A stretch of 64,000 nucleotides of DNA from an uncultured Eubacteriales bacterium (GCA_964602455.1 CAZRRG010000002.1:1100-65099); one strand, 5' to 3'; numbered from the stretch's first letter, positions 1,597 through 40,786 are shown. The notes: a model not told the origin generated them from the sequence alone. Program-made: numbers and translations.

Positions 1597-1898
1597 AGGG
1601 CATTCCTCCCAGAAATGTTGTTCCAGCAGGCGCAACAAGGTAAGCCGCGGCCTCAAGAAGGCAATATCTTGAAAGACCGCGTGCGGTGTGTGACCGGGAA
1701 GAGGCTCTTACGGGGCGAAAACGCCACGGGACGAGGCCGCCTTCCCTTTCGACGCTTACGAGGTTAGCTGACGGGCTCGGGCTGAAAAGGATTAGCCCTA
1801 CGCGAGGCGCGATTAGCCCCTAAGAAGTGGGTCCCCCGTTCCCCCTGTGGCAGGGAGATTCAGCGATAAGGCGCGTACAACGCTGCTGGTCAAATTCC

Positions 1899-10818: not shown

Positions 10819-10894
10819 CGGGGAGTGGCGCAGTTGGTAGCGCGCATGGTTTGGGACCATGAGGCCGCAGGTTCAAGTCCTGTCTCCCCGACCA
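10819..10894 (+). tRNA. tRNA-Pro (anticodon UGG), CCA encoded
   Basis: A manual cloverleaf gives a 7-bp acceptor stem, GCGC D-stem, anticodon loop TTTGGGA with G37, and T-loop GGTTCAAGTCC. The sequence continues ...CTCCCCG A CCA. Confidence 0.9.
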
Positions 10895-28229: not shown

Positions 28230-28576
28230 TGGTGGAGGCGGAGGGAATCGCACCCTCGTCCGTTGATAACCCAGTCTCAGTCTCTACGAGCGTATCTCCG
28301 GATTTGATCTCGCCGACCGCAGCGCCCCGGAGCGGGCTCTACGTTCCGCCAGCCCGGAATTGCGTTCCCTTGAGGGTCCCGGACGTCCCCCTCAAGGTAT
28401 CTCTCCTAGGTGACGGTGACTCCGGGATAGGAGAGAAGTCTCCCGGCTCACCGGGCTGCCTAATTAGGCAGCCAGTGCGTAACTGTTGTTGGCAGTTATG
28501 GTTTTGCCGTTTGTTGGGTACGGCACCCATGCTCGCTGCTCAGACCCGACTACCAGCGTCGAACCTGGTCGCCCCC
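28230..28576 (-). ncRNA. ssrA: tmRNA (SsrA)
   Basis: Minus-strand 5' end GGGGGCGACCAGGTTCGACG and 3' end GGACGAGGGTGCGATTCCCTCCGCCTCCACCA. Internal tag ORF GGC AAA ACC ATA ACT GCC AAC AAC AGT TAC GCA CTG GCT GCC TAA, with the stop inside a hairpin. It lies immediately downstream of smpB. Confidence 0.85.
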
Positions 28577-28673
28577 ATGCATACGGATCTTAACATCTTC
28601 TCATCCGGGCCACAACCGTTGCCAAGCTGCGCTCGCGACGAACAGCGAACGCCTGGACAGTCCTTATTGCCTG

Positions 28674-36089: not shown

Positions 36090-36626
36090 TCAACCGTACA
36101 TGAAGTATCCAAGGATACCCGAAACCAGCAGCACCAGCACAGGATCCACGTTGAACCTAAGAATCGCGACCGCCGCCGCGATGGCCGTGAGGATCTGGAC
36201 GGCTCCCGTAAGCGTCACTCCGGCCACCGAGACAGCGGCCGTCAGCACCAGGGCAACCACTACCGGACGCACGCCCTTGAATATGTCTTTCACGAAACCC
36301 ATTTCCCGATACTTGAGGAAGAGATAGCCCAGGACCAGCATTATCACTATGGATGGCAGCACCACTCCCACGGAGGCTGCGATGGACCCGGGCAATCCCG
36401 CGACCCTAAACCCAACGTAGGTTGCTGAGTTGATCCCGATAGGACCCGGCGTTCCCTCGGAGAGAGCGATAACGTCGATGAACTCATCCATCGACAACCA
36501 CGCCCTGCTCGTGACGACCTCCCGCGAGATGAGGGGGATCATGGCGTAGCCGCCACCGAAGCTGAAGGCGCCTATCTTGAGGAACGACAAGAACAGTTGT
36601 AGGAGCACGTCAGTCCTCCTCCCCAC
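36090..36626 (-). CDS. chrA: Chromate transporter, short CHR family (second half of pair)
   Basis: FGGGYAMIPL CHR signature. Confidence 0.8.
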   Translation of the reverse strand: MGRRTDVLLQLFLSFLKIGAFSFGGGYAMIPLISREVVTSRAWLSMDEFIDVIALSEGTPGPIGINSATYVGFRVAGLPGSIAASVGVVLPSIVIMLVLGYLFLKYREMGFVKDIFKGVRPVVVALVLTAAVSVAGVTLTGAVQILTAIAAAVAILRFNVDPVLVLLVSGILGYFMYG

Positions 36627-37248
36627 CGGCAGGCGCCTGGCCTTTACGGGCTATACGCCCCAGCACGATGCCTGTCAAAGCCCCGCCGGCCACCACCACG
36701 ACCGGATGCAGCTTAAGCCCGGCCAGCAGGACTGCCGCGACAATGGCCAGGACCGCGTCGATCCGTGTCTTCACTGTCGACCTGCCTACTTGCCAGACAG
36801 CCGAGACCAGAAGCCCAAAGATGGCCGGACGCATGCCCTTGAAGACGGCATCGACCGCCGTCGAGGACCGGTATCGCACGAGGACAGTGGCAAACGCGAG
36901 GATCACTAAGAATGAAGGGAGAGACGCACCTAGTGCCGCGATGAGGGCGCCAGGGACTCTTCTGAGCCTGTAGCCGGAAATCACAGCGACGTTCACCGCT
37001 ATCGGCCCCGGAGCGCTCTGGGCGACAGCCAAGAGATCGACAAACTCCGAGTCTCCGAGCCATCCCTTATGGGACACCAGTTGCTTCCTGATGAGAGGGA
37101 TCATGGCCCAGCCCCCGCCGAAAGTGAAGGCGCCTATCCTGAAGAAGCTCCAGAAGATCTCCCCAAGCGCTGCGTGAGGTTGTTGTATTGTGGCCGTATC
37201 TCCTGCCTCGGCTCCTGCCTTGGCTCCTGCTCGGGCTTCTTCCGGCAA
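36610..37248 (-). CDS. chrA: Chromate transporter, short CHR family (first half of pair)
   Basis: FGGGWAMIPL CHR signature. Extended -10 (TGCTATAAT) at 37281-37289. Confidence 0.8.
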   Translation of the reverse strand: MPEEARAGAKAGAEAGDTATIQQPHAALGEIFWSFFRIGAFTFGGGWAMIPLIRKQLVSHKGWLGDSEFVDLLAVAQSAPGPIAVNVAVISGYRLRRVPGALIAALGASLPSFLVILAFATVLVRYRSSTAVDAVFKGMRPAIFGLLVSAVWQVGRSTVKTRIDAVLAIVAAVLLAGLKLHPVVVVAGGALTGIVLGRIARKGQAPAGGEED

Positions 37249-37412
37249 CGAGGACTCCTCCCAGGATCTGATGCGCTCTGATGCGCTTGCATTATAGCAC
37301 TCGTCCCACCAAGGGTCTCGCTATCCATCCCCCTTTGCTCCTCATTCGTCCATCACCCTATCTAGCCATCTAGCAGGGGTTTATCGCATCAAAATGCGTC
37401 TAGCAGGGCAAT

Positions 37413-37569
37413 GTCGGTGAAACCCGCCACGTTTCAGCCCTGTGGCGGGCAGAACCCGCAACTCGTATTTTTCGTGGCGGGCACCATCCGCCACTCGGAA
37501 GGCGCGTGGCGGGCGGGACCGGCAACGACGCTCCGGAGTGGCGGGCGAAACCCGCAACCGGTTCGCGTC
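37413..37569. repeat. Tandem array with exact 32-bp period (4 full units plus a partial). Each unit has a 21-nt conserved core GTGGCGGGC-N3-ACC-N-GC-N-AC and an 11-nt variable segment
   Basis: Units start at 37442, 37474, 37506 and 37538. The cores carry short GC inverted repeats (GCGGG-N5-CCCGC). Confidence 0.8.
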
Positions 37570-37586
37570 GGGGGTTAAGGGTTGAG

Positions 37587-37702
37587 GGGTTCAGAAGTAC
37601 GGGGGGGTTGAGAAGTACGGTGGGTTGAGAAGTACGAGGGTTGAGAAGTACGAGGGTTGAGAAGTACGGGGGGTTCAGAAGTACGAGGGATTCGAAGGTC
37701 CA
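37587..37702. repeat. Tandem array of ~7 copies of a 15-nt unit GGGTT(G/C)AGAAGTACG at 16-19-bp period (G-tract spacers)
   Basis: Read directly from the sequence. It gives rise to the spurious 'VLLNP' repeat ORF. Confidence 0.85.
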
Positions 37703-37730
37703 AAAACACAAGAAGCCCTCGCGAGGGCTT
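37701..37730 (-). terminator. Rho-independent terminator of sigA
   Basis: Minus strand: GCCCTCGCGAGGGC followed by TTCTTGTGTTTTTGG. Confidence 0.7.
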
Positions 37731-37763
37731 TCGTGTAATGTACTGGCGAATCAGGATAAGGGG

Positions 37764-38879
37764 CTAGACCAGGTAATCCTTCAGCCGCTTGCTCCTCTGG
37801 GGATGCCGCAGCTTGCGGAGGGCTTTGGCTTCGATCTGCCTTATTCTTTCCCTCGTCACGCCGAACTCCCGGCCCACTTCCTCAAGCGTGCGGGCTTTGC
37901 CGTCATCGAGCCCGAAGCGAAGGCGCAGGACCTTCTGCTCTCGCTCGTTCAGGGTGTCGAGAACGCCTTCAATCTGCTCACGCAGCAAAAGGAACGAGGC
38001 CGCTTCAACAGGAGCGGGGGCGTCCTCATCCTCGATGAAGTCCCCGAGGTGGCTGTCTTCCTCTTCACCAATTGGCGTCTCCAGCGAGACTGGTTCCTGA
38101 GCGATCTTCAGGATCTCGCGGACCTTGTCGGCAGTGATGCCCATCTCCTCGGCAACTTCCTCGGGGGTTGGCTCGCGGCCAAGCTCCTGGATGAGGTGCC
38201 TGGAGGTCCTGATCAGCTTGTTGATGGTCTCGACCATATGGACAGGGATCCTGATGGTCCTGGCCTGGTCGGCTATTGCCCTGGTGATGGCCTGACGGAT
38301 CCACCATGTGGCGTATGTGGACAGCTTGAACCCCTTCCGGAAGTCAAACTTCTCGACCGCCTTGATGAGGCCCATATTCCCTTCCTGGATGAGGTCCAGG
38401 AACTGCATCCCTCTGCCTACGTAGCGCTTGGCGATAGACACAACCAGACGCAGGTTGGCCTCGATGAGCCGGCCTTTGGCCATCTTGTCGCCCATCTCCA
38501 TGCGCCGCGCGAGTTCGATCTCCTCTTCAGCCGTGAGAAGCGATACGCGCCCGATCTCCTTGAGGTACATCCTCACGGGGTCGTCCAGGGCCACCCCTTC
38601 GGGGATGGTGAGGTCGATCTCACCCGGCTCCTCGAGCTGCTCCTCAGGCACATCGGGCTCGTCATGCAGGACGGCTACATCATCCGGTCCCTGCTTGGCA
38701 TCGCCGACGGTAATACCCATGTCGTGGAACTGCTTATAGACGTCGTCAACCTGCTCGGTCGTGAGATCTAGGCGACCGAGGGCATCCGCTACCTCGTCAT
38801 GGGTCAAGAAGCCCTTTCTCTGACCGAGGGCGAGGAGATCTTTTACGACGTCCATGTCCACCGACTGCAATTCCTTCAA
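37764..38879 (-). CDS. sigA: RNA polymerase sigma factor SigA/RpoD
   Basis: Regions 1.2-4 all present. Confidence 0.97.
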
Positions 38880-40786
38880 CTATCTTCCCTCCTGGGGAAC
38901 CCGGGAGACGATTTCCCATCGCCGCCGTCCCCAACGGACTTCACCTGTCGCAGTAGAACCTCAAACTCACTGCGGAGTGCTTCGAGGGCGGGACCATCCT
39001 TCTGGCGCTCCAGGGCTGCCATTCTCTCCCGGAGCTCAGATAGCCGGATCTCCTTTAGTTTCCGAAGGCAGTCCTGCAATATGCGCCTCGGTTGGCTTGC
39101 AGGCACGTTCGCGCAAAGCCCCGCCATCCACTCTGAAAGATCCTTGTCTTCTACCCCGTCAAGCGAACCGCGCTCGAGAGCTAAGAACGCTTCCCGGCAC
39201 CTTTGGTCCGCAAAATCATCTGCAGTGAGGCTCTCGCGGACTAAGTTGCTGAGTCCTGTATCTTCGATGAGACACCGGATTACTCCTTCTTCAGCCTTTC
39301 TACGAACTATGCTTACTTCGGTATCGCCCTTCGCGCTTCCTGCTTCCGTTCCGGGCCTGGATGTCGTTCTCTGCCCAGGTAAAGGCTGGTTGTCATAATC
39401 GCTAGTATCCCTGTTTTCTGACTTTTTATACTTGGCTGCCTGCTGCGCTTTCCGCCTGTAAATTTCGACATCCTTGGCAAGCGAGTCCTTCTGCACGCCA
39501 AGTTCCCTGGAGATCTCCTCCACGTAGGCGGAAACCTCAAACTGGCTCTGAAGCGAGGCCAGCACAGGGAGCATGGCATCCTTCACGCGGAGTTTGCCTT
39601 CTATGCCCGACACACCGTAGAGCGCTTTTGCCTCTTCGTACAGGAACGAGATATCTGGCAGCGCGTCATCCAGCCTCTTCACGAACGCGTCTGTGCCCTC
39701 TTTGCGCAAAAACTCGTCAGGGTCCTTGGCCTTAGCGAAGGTTACCACTGAGCTGCGCCCTCCGGCCTCCCGGAACACCTCGATGCTCCGGCGAGCAGCC
39801 CGCTTGCCGGCCTCGTCCTGGTCGTACACAAGGAAGACCTTCTCCGAAAGCAGGAGGAGGGTTCGCGCTTGTTCGTGAGACAGAGCGGTACCCATCCCCG
39901 CAACCGTATAGTCTATTCCGTGCTGGAAGGACATGATAACGTCCATATACCCTTCCATGATGCATACCTTGTTCTCGCGCCGGATGGAGGGCTTGGCCAG
40001 GTTCAGCGCGTAGAGCTCCTTCCCCTTCCTGAAGAGAGGGGTGTCGGGCGAGTTTAGGTACTTGGGCTGCTCATCTCCTAACGCCCTTCCCCCGAATCCG
40101 ATGAGTTCACCGGCGGCATCCCAGATAGGGAATGTGATCCGGTTTCGAAACCTGTCGTAGAACCCACCGCTCTGACGCTCAAGCAGGAGTCCCGCTTTGA
40201 ACATGTCGGCCCTGTCGATCCCTGCTGACCTGCCGCTGCCGGCTATGAACTCCCACTCGGGAGGGGCATACCCGAGACCGAACCTATCGATGGTCTCCCT
40301 CGACAGGCCCCGCTGCTCCAGGTACTGCCTCGCCGCCCTGCCCGAAGGCCCGTCCAACGCCTCGCGGTAACGCTTCTGGGCGTACGCAAGCGCGGCCCGT
40401 AGCCTCTGCCGTTCCCTCATCGCGGCCTCTTCCTGTGCGCGAGCGCGACCTGTAGGCAGCGTGACCCCCGCTCTTCTGGCCAGGGCCGCGAGGGCTTCCG
40501 GAAAAGTGATCCCGTCTTTCCTCATGAGAAAATGGAACACGGTGCCGCCTGCGCCGCATCCGAAGCAGTAAAACAACTGCTTGTCGGGGTCAACCGAGAA
40601 CGAGGGCGTCTTTTCCTCGTGGAACGGGCAAAGACCGACGTAGTTCTTGCCTGTCTTGCGAAGCTTCACATACTCAGAAATCAGGGACACGATATCTACC
40701 CTGGACTTTACCTCGGCTATTACATCGTCACCGTAGAACCCGCCTGGCAAATCAAATCTCCTCGTAGTTCCAAGTCTTGGGGACAA
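38876..40786 (-). CDS. dnaG: DNA primase
   Basis: [13 protein letters not shown] zinc finger, toprim domain. Confidence 0.95.

Follow-up and report, generated by a model that had tools for sequence, protein, structure and literature searches.

The 64-kb window, by which we mean the whole stretch of DNA analysed, derives from an uncultured Bacillota species of digester and sludge metagenomes. The homologues of its ChrA and SigA proteins all come from uncultured Bacillota MAGs or metagenomes, the closest named organism being Candidatus Fermentithermobacillus with 73% SigA identity. The region considered here is a 515-nt intergenic spacer between sigA and chrA. The sigA gene (37764-38879) is the last gene of dnaG-sigA and encodes a 371-aa primary sigma factor with the Pfam domains Sigma70 r1.1, r1.2, r2, r3 and r4; dnaG occupies 38876-40786. 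On the other side of the spacer, chrA is a split pair composed of chrA-N (36610-37248), a 212-aa chromate transporter half (Pfam PF02417), and a second Chromate_transp ORF (36090-36626), followed by gap. The genes dnaG, sigA, both chrA halves and gap are all on the minus strand.

Read along the minus strand, the intergenic spacer begins with the intrinsic terminator of sigA, AAGCCCTCGCGAGGGCTT followed by CTTGTGTTTTT (37703-37730, with the hairpin at 37730-37713 and then the T-tract; terminator scan). It continues with a 16-18-nt array (37570-37702), a 32-nt array (37442-37569), a half-unit GTGGCGGGTTTCACCGAC (37413-37430) and a block that includes ATAAACCCCTGCTAGA and two CCTGCTAGA boxes (37362-37412, with the boxes at 37369-37377 and 37399-37407), the last two features being recognised with a repeat finder and by comparison with the sister species L005. 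Next come the block GAGACCCTTGGTGGGACGAG and the extended -10 of the chrA promoter, TGCTATAAT (37291-37299; from sequence and conservation in relatives), a 10-nt tandem duplication of GCGCATCAGA (37267-37286) at or just past the predicted chrA transcription start, the ribosome-binding site GGGAGGAG and the TTG start of chrA. Both arrays are thus located 3´ of the dnaG-sigA terminator and ~150-400 nt upstream of the extended -10, and the conserved promoter lies ~45 nt from the start codon. The GC content is 0.54-0.66 across the arrays, and a scan of the spacer detected no promoter-like (sigma-70) sites. The original prediction, made from the sequence, had placed the repeats after the sigA terminator and before the chrA promoter, and the terminator scan and gene context agree. 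Three of its smaller details need correction: the GCGCATCAGA pair and TGCTATAAT had been placed 10 nt off, at 37257-37276 and 37281-37289, respectively, and the two copies of TCTAGCAGGG are 30 nt apart (37369 and 37399) rather than 37.

The 32-nt array is made up of four units, each consisting of a 21-nt imperfect palindromic core, GTGGCGGGC-N5-CNGCNAC, and an 11-nt unrelated spacer. On the plus strand the cores occupy 37442-37462, 37474-37494, 37506-37526 and 37538-37558, with start-to-start distances of 32, 32 and 32 nt, and a partial fifth core match is found at 37416-37430, within the half-unit, just as had been described. The pattern GTGGCGGGCNNNACCNGCNAC, allowing up to two mismatches, has five matches in the window; shuffled sequences gave a mean of 0.12 and none of 100 reached five. 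Both repeat families proposed for this spacer are real and occur far beyond chance. Among the four units, 15 of the 21 core columns are invariant compared to 0 of the 11 spacer columns (Fisher p = 1e-4). Pairwise identity is 15-19/21 (71-90%) for the cores and 1-5/11, which is random level, for the unit spacers. The 5´ arm GTGGCGGGC is invariant in all eight units of the two haplotypes described below, and every change is found in the 3´ arm, where most changes break a pair and none is compensated. The four cores share this asymmetry (a perfect 5´ arm, and A at position 19 in three of four) and are therefore direct repeats. As single-stranded DNA, individual cores form hairpins of -5 to -7.5 kcal/mol, and the flank of core 4 recurs inverted on its other side (CGACGC..CCGG..core..CCGG..GCGTCG). 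The combination of conserved cores and random unit spacers is not what uniform decay of a tandem duplication predicts. It may reflect either selection on the cores, as in a protein-binding array, or repeated template-switch repair of complementary arms.

The 16-18-nt array (TRF and repeat finder) has the unit GGGTTSAGAAGTACG on the plus strand, equivalent to CGTACTTCTSAACCC on the minus strand. Six exact units start at 37587, 37605, 37622, 37638, 37654 and 37671, with spacings of 18, 17, 16, 16 and 17 nt and a total span of 37587-37685. A degenerate unit follows at 37688-37702, and truncated units are found at 37570-37586. TRF reports a period of 16, 6.2 copies and 88% matches. The array of about seven copies originally described is real, with six exact units and a degenerate one, and its period is 16-18 rather than 16-19 nt. 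With a 12-nt unit repeated three times in the sequence encoding the N-terminal tail of chrA-N (37200-37234, minus strand; TRF), the locus has four separate tandem repeats within ~520 nt (12 x 3, coding; 10 x 2; 32 x 4; 16 x 6-7). In the remaining ~63 kb of the window, TRF finds essentially no other substantial tandem array.

Four assemblies from the same species extend over the locus: L003 (JGI 3300064362), L001 (Logan SRR30200685), L124 (ENA activated-sludge UOYA01038836) and L002. L003 is 99.8% identical to the window over 6.6 kb and has both arrays with the same structure, differing by one SNP (37690) in the degenerate end unit. L001 and L124 are independent assemblies with a common second allele and the same seven SNPs. 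Haplotype A (the window and L003) has six full units in the short array and haplotype B (L001 and L124) has four, lacking 40 nt distributed over three gaps (37577-83, 37603-20 and 37641-55). The short array is a genuine copy-number polymorphism and thus a true VNTR. The number of cores is four in all four assemblies, and no copy-number variation is seen in the 32-nt array. A comparison between strains, suggested at the outset as a check for a VNTR, accordingly gives a positive answer for the 16-nt array (6 vs. 4 copies) and a negative one for the 32-nt array. The structure of the 32-nt array is common to the independent assemblies, and each allele of the 16-nt array is supported by a pair of them; the arrays are therefore real and not an artefact of assembly. 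The collapse or expansion that might have produced them is not borne out by L003 or by the allele common to L001 and L124.

Within the locus, sequence change is fastest in the arrays. Divergence is ~4% in 37458-37636 compared to ~0.15% in the flanking 2-6 kb, corresponding to a SNP density ~25x that of the flanks, and 7 of the 16 mismatches of L001 to the window and 9 of the 13 of L124 fall in this interval. The promoter-proximal 200 nt of the intergenic spacer show zero differences to the window in L001, L003 and L004, as well as in L124, which begins at 37417. Within the 32-nt array, SNPs in the species affect 1 of 64 stem positions and 5 of 44 spacer and junction positions. This avoidance of stems fits selection on the cores and is only suggestive. 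The outer stem of core 4 (CGACGC...GCGTCG) is altered in L001 by a single change, G>A at 37565; in L124 this change is joined by C>T at 37529, by which pairing is restored. The pair looks like one apparent compensatory change, with L001 as the uncompensated intermediate. Two other changes in the right arm (37561 and 37567) break pairs.

Seven related lineages were recovered (L005/L006, L008/L007, L125/L132/L133, L126, L130, L131 and L134). The order dnaG-sigA-chrA-chrA-gap-pgk-tpi is kept in every one, and their sigA-chrA spacers measure 87-265 nt. Neither array was found in the spacers of these seven lineages. The boundaries of the region are retained to a large extent: a homologous terminator hairpin and T-tract is present in L005, L008, L125/L132, L130, L131 and L134, with no hairpin seen in the spacer of L126, and the TGCTATAAT promoter is conserved in L005, L008, L125, L126, L132 and L134, with no TGCTATAAT at the corresponding position of L130. 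In the closer relatives, TGCTATAAT is accompanied by an upstream GGAGGAGACCCTT block; it stands alone in L008 and L134. Where the window has GCGCATCAGA twice, sister species have one copy only, as GCGCCACAAGA or GCGCCACGAGA. L008, L130, L131 and L134 have short, plain spacers.

The sister species L005, with sigA and dnaG DNA 87% identical to the window, ChrA 79% identical and chrA DNA ~75% identical, is informative on the origin of the 32-nt array. Between its terminator and promoter is one GTGGCGGGTTTTTCCGAC, followed by CCTGCTAG ... ATAAACCCCTGCTAGA, a segment corresponding to the half-unit and the two CCTGCTAGA boxes of the window. The half-unit GTGGCGGGTTTCACCGAC, previously read as a partial fifth copy, is homologous to this single ancestral motif GTGGCGGGTTTTTCCGAC. 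On its left, the motif in L005 is bordered by GACGGAACCAGTGGCGGG, which agrees with the sequence to the left of the window's terminator-proximal unit (GACGCGAACCGGTTGCGGG); on its right, the flank matches that of the half-unit. The array consequently expanded from within the ancestral sequence, as tandem duplications do. The block at 37362-37412 is common to the window and L005 only and is absent from L008, L125/L132, L126, L130, L131 and L134; all that is seen in L126 is GGGTTTTACCCGCCAC, oppositely oriented.

A different outcome is seen in the species represented by L125, L132 and L133, of which L132 is an 817-kb contig of the NCBI MAG GCA_050260675.1. Neither motif was found at the locus in these three, and L132 has tandem repeats of its own: one after the sigA stop (14 x 2.6), one between terminator and promoter (17 x 3.2) and one in the N-terminal coding part of chrA (15 x 3.3). 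These are three of eight tandem repeats in 21 kb and are unrelated to the arrays in the window. Because the window has four repeats at this locus and the L132 species has unrelated ones in the same place, the locus is a hotspot across the clade at which short tandem duplications arise, each species having products of its own.

On balance, we favour reading the region as a compound minisatellite (VNTR) that is specific to one lineage and of mutational origin, rather than as a conserved regulatory device, a preference held with modest confidence. It is based on the restriction to one species, the location in a hotspot that carries unrelated repeats elsewhere, the copy-number polymorphism, the excess of substitutions, the lack of dispersal in the collections searched, and the lack of transcription and coding signals in the spacer. 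The arrays would then be without sequence-specific function and any effect that they have is probably incidental. Possible effects include the formation of hairpin- or cruciform-prone DNA and the provision of a C-rich, G-poor, unstructured tract in sigA read-through RNA.

Slippage during replication, or tandem duplication, may have produced the two adjacent arrays in a spacer that is under weak constraint and apparently untranscribed. The 16-18-nt array would be young, with a copy number that is still changing. The 32-nt array would be older and would have grown from inside a single ancestral motif, as represented by GACGGAACCA-GTGGCGGGTTTT-CCGAC in L005. A fold-back event of the quasipalindrome template-switch type may have made the inverted arm, and direct amplification could then have raised the unit to four copies. 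Imperfect palindromes are described as hotspots of template-switch mutation that give rise to local mutation clusters and inverted copies (PMC7202029; PMC9435742, 10.1101/2021.11.26.470150). The region in the window resembles the cases described there in having imperfect inverted repeats, a local substitution cluster, an apparent compensatory change and an inverted flank. What has been documented is the mechanism at single quasipalindromes of E. coli, yeast and human, whereas the suggestion that template switching acts at the present locus comes from the sequence pattern.

Bacterial intergenic VNTR or minisatellite loci are used for MLVA typing, e.g. MIRU-VNTR of Mycobacterium tuberculosis, and are attributed to slipped-strand mispairing. 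On the reading preferred here, the region is an instance of this known class. Like other members, it has head-to-tail units in the range of 10-100 nt, is intergenic and locus-specific, varies between strains and is absent or different in sister species; tandem copies at a single locus, variation in copy number (of the 16-nt array only) and absence from related species are all found. It differs in that two unrelated arrays abut, and in that the 32-nt array has palindromic cores with unrelated spacers and no copy variation in four assemblies. More generally, the locus illustrates how an unconstrained spacer between a terminator and a promoter can become a clade-wide hotspot in which each species has its own tandem duplications.

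The conserved cores and the random unit spacers speak against a reading by simple decay. The number of cores is moreover constant at four, and two species with only ~75% identical chrA DNA have both kept the seed motif and the CCTGCTAGA boxes, all of which fits selection on the cores. Concerted template-switch repair of mutually complementary arms, which we suggest as a neutral alternative, could likewise keep the cores alike; the unit spacers and loops would diverge because they have no template for repair. If this is the case, the locus would exemplify a neutral route to CRISPR- or iteron-like periodicity that could mislead scans based on sequence.

The most serious alternative to the minisatellite is a phased protein-binding array, resembling iterons or multiple operators, in which a predicted protein would read GTGGCGGGC or the 21-bp imperfect palindrome. 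We consider this unlikely, albeit worth retaining. Four sites three helical turns apart could bind cooperatively on one face of the DNA, either upstream of the chrA promoter or in a topological or insulating role after sigA. Such an array might be newly born by amplification of one ancestral site, with selection holding the cores while the spacers drift, a version to which we likewise give only a minor share of belief. Cores that are conserved among spacers and loops at random-level similarity, a period of exactly 32 nt, a core number that is constant across haplotypes, the retention of the single ancestral motif and adjoining CCTGCTAGA boxes in L005, and the under-representation of SNPs in stems all speak for it. 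The exact period follows from tandem duplication anyway, and the phasing on one face is no independent evidence because 32 nt is simply the unit length of the duplication. The cores are situated 150-270 nt from the -10, with no overlap, and every sister lineage with the same promoter lacks the array. Only the 5´ arm is invariant while the 3´ arm decays, and a symmetric dimer site is therefore a poor fit. The adjacent genes are housekeeping genes and do not include a regulator, and the motif is unused elsewhere in the 64 kb. By eye, the conserved block gave no convincing match to the consensus sequences for Rex, CggR and sigma-54. If the cores were nevertheless under selection, the locus would document how a phased array of binding sites is born de novo, as a snapshot of the origin of an iteron- or operator-like array.

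The likeness to iterons is confined to architecture. As in the iteron arrays of theta plasmids, including RK2 oriV, conserved cores are arranged as direct repeats, the spacers between them are not conserved, and the period is an integral number of helical turns. In RK2 oriV, the array is found beside a rep initiator gene together with DnaA boxes and an AT-rich unwinding element (PMC4980987). The helically phased conserved cores are present at the locus, whereas the rep gene, the DnaA boxes and the AT-rich element are not; the surrounding genes are chromosomal housekeeping genes, plasmid and phage records show no similarity, and the cores are palindromic. The absence of DnaA boxes had been noted before, and a search allowing up to one mismatch found none in the region. 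The accompanying proposal of an iteron-like or cooperative transcription-factor array is left unsupported by the comparison: seven lineages with the same gene order and, apart from L130, the same promoter are without the arrays, the locus is a hotspot with different repeats in a sister species, and the arrays are its fastest-evolving part.

A second alternative concerns the short array, which could be a candidate Rho-loading (rut-like) tract that stops sigA read-through before the chrA promoter. This would be compatible with an origin by slippage, and we regard it as quite improbable. The minus-strand RNA of 37570-37705 has 136 nt, of which 62 are C (46%) and 11 are G (8%), and it is unstructured (folding z = 0.08). 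It begins directly after the terminator T-tract and has the composition of a rut tract, which is C-rich, G-poor and unstructured over ~80 nt or more. On the other hand, the composition may merely reflect the repeated unit, the copy number varies freely between haplotypes, and the sister species manage without the array.

It is very unlikely that the region is a cluster of REP/BIME-like mobile palindromes placed by a REP-associated tyrosine transposase. The cores do resemble REPs in being short (21-nt), GC-rich imperfect palindromes with regular spacing that are extragenic and downstream of the 3´ end of a gene. As described, REPs occur in more than 100 copies per genome with alternating orientation within BIMEs (PMC2817692) and have a palindrome of which one end bears the tag GTAG or CGTC (PMC3733652). 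In the window, by contrast, the four units are all in direct orientation, and their heads are GTGG (plus strand) or GTTG/GTGG (minus strand), with only one unit that happens to follow CGTC. Dispersal is also lacking. Neither unit is found elsewhere in the 64-kb window, and GTGGCGGG occurs nine times against 4.9 expected, with five of the nine at the locus and no enrichment elsewhere. Scanning GTDB representative genomes with GTGGCGGGCNNNACCCGCAAC gave 110 stretches in unrelated GC-rich taxa, each a single unit, and no genome had more than one unit per 8 kb. Three of the 110 were inspected and lie inside apparent coding sequence; the source species is apparently not a GTDB representative. Viral contigs gave 0 matches to either array, and blastn against plasmid and phage records showed no similarity. 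These searches, together with those of metagenomes, agree with the original prediction that the repeats are locus-specific rather than dispersed.

Similarly slim is the chance that the region specifies a structured RNA, whether a small RNA, a 3´ extension of the sigA mRNA or a long chrA leader of repeated hairpins. Compared with shuffled controls, the 32-nt array folds markedly more stably, with z = -4.1 and -4.0 on the two strands. The folding of both strands that had been proposed proved uninformative as to the strand, since a palindromic array necessarily folds equally well on either. In a search of Rfam with the region (E up to 10), the best E-values were 3.2-7.9, far below gathering scores, and represent noise matches of microRNA models to the palindromes; the whole window at gathering thresholds gave no match for the region. 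Covariation in the core stems is zero, with no pairs changed on both sides in eight units from both haplotypes, and thus lends no support to a selected hairpin. With neither a family match nor covariation nor transcription signals of its own, as judged from the promoter scan, the region lies between a conserved terminator and a conserved promoter and is absent from relatives.

Translation of the arrays was considered as well. Neither of the ORFs across them (minus strand, 103 aa; plus strand, 55 aa) matches a Pfam family. The repeat periods (16-18 and 32) and the length of the 40-nt indel are not divisible by 3, and the indel interrupts the 103-aa ORF; the region is non-coding, as had been supposed.

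That the repeats result from collapse or expansion during assembly, or that they form a degenerate CRISPR-like array, can be dismissed almost entirely: assemblers do fail at repeats, and the L002 contig ends inside the 16-nt array, but each array is at most ~150 nt and the 32-nt array is recovered consistently by four independent assemblies, which also agree pairwise on the 16-nt alleles, while the superficially similar layout of repeats and unique spacers comes with spacers of 11 nt, far too short, and no cas genes within ~10 kb (by L132 synteny). CRISPR arrays have repeats of about 21-48 nt and spacers of about 26-72 nt. The window shares with them partly palindromic direct repeats and unique spacers of constant length and differs in the length of the spacers, in having four repeats only, in the lack of cas genes nearby and in a "repeat" that is derived from local ancestral sequence. 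That the region is not CRISPR had already been stated and holds.

The polymorphism of the 16-nt array makes it a ready strain marker for this Bacillota species of digesters and sludge, although its practical value is limited. A metagenome scan for a pattern of two 32-nt units gave four matches, one of which (L124) is the same locus. A second, L121, was rejected as a chance match inside apparent coding sequence. The remaining two, L122 and L123, have a 32-nt minisatellite with a core that is 19/21 identical to core 2; its spacers are conserved, and it is part of a minisatellite-filled, eukaryote-like contig without real ORFs, and we judge the resemblance to be a coincidence forced by the pattern.

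Between the window species and its sister species L005, one block of the sigA–chrA intergenic region, GTGGCGGGTTTyhCCGACAwwGyCCTGCTAG followed by ATAAACCCCTGCTAGA, is well conserved even though the chrA DNA of the two is only ~75% identical. It occupies positions 37362–37430 of the window and 2847–2920 of L005, and is missing from all relatives except L005. Possible roles for the block are as a binding site or as a promoter element. In the further relative L126, the corresponding intergenic stretch (L126 1893–1960) has no recognisable sigA terminator hairpin and carries GGGTTTTACCCGCCAC, an inverted form of the GTGGCGGG motif; the promoter block lies ~10 nt further downstream.

The chrA leader and the start of its coding sequence also differ between species. 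A 10-nt tandem duplication of GCGCATCAGA (37267–37286), located in the 5´ UTR of chrA where transcription is predicted to begin, makes the leader 10 nt longer. The doubling is specific to the window species, as L005 and the other sister species (assemblies L125 and L132) have a single copy, in the form of GCGCCACAAGA or GCGCCACGAGA. Within the gene, the codons for the N-terminal tail of ChrA include a tandem repeat of 12 nt x 3 in the window (37200–37234, minus strand) and an unlike one of 15 nt x 3.3, AAGAAGCCCAAGCCA, in L132 (11365–11413). Slippage drives the evolution of this low-complexity tail itself.

The two-unit pattern scan for the 32-nt array also matched a 32-nt minisatellite, GCCCGCCACGTCATCGACACGTGGCAGATGCT x 8.5, in two metagenome contigs (L122 409–690; L123 623–892), the palindromic core of which is identical to the second core of the window array at 19 of 21 positions. 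The surrounding contig sequence is eukaryote-like, crowded with further minisatellites and devoid of credible ORFs, and we judged the resemblance to be a coincidence of the search pattern. On the plus strand, antisense to sigA and chrA, GGGGGTTAAGGGTTGAGGGGTTCAGAAGTACGGGGGGG (37570–37607) contains four G-tracts separated by loops of 4, 4 and 12 nt, a possible long-loop G-quadruplex; GC skew reaches +0.48 here, compared to about -0.1 in the flanks.

Within the sigA coding sequence, five differences from both L001 and L003, two other assemblies of the window species, fall within 91 nt (38001, 38004, 38022, 38067 and 38091), while these assemblies diverge from the window at ~0.15% elsewhere. Some of the five are also present in the conspecific assemblies L002 and L124. 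The cluster may mark a short tract of recombination, or else one of the assemblies may be strain-chimeric over this stretch.

Elsewhere in the window, Rfam matches at gathering level comprise a c-di-AMP riboswitch of the ydaO/yuaA type (1737–1875, minus strand), a tRNA (10819–10891, plus strand) and tmRNA (28230–28576, minus strand). A match to CCTGCTAGA at 28670, ~100 nt from the tmRNA, probably arose by chance.
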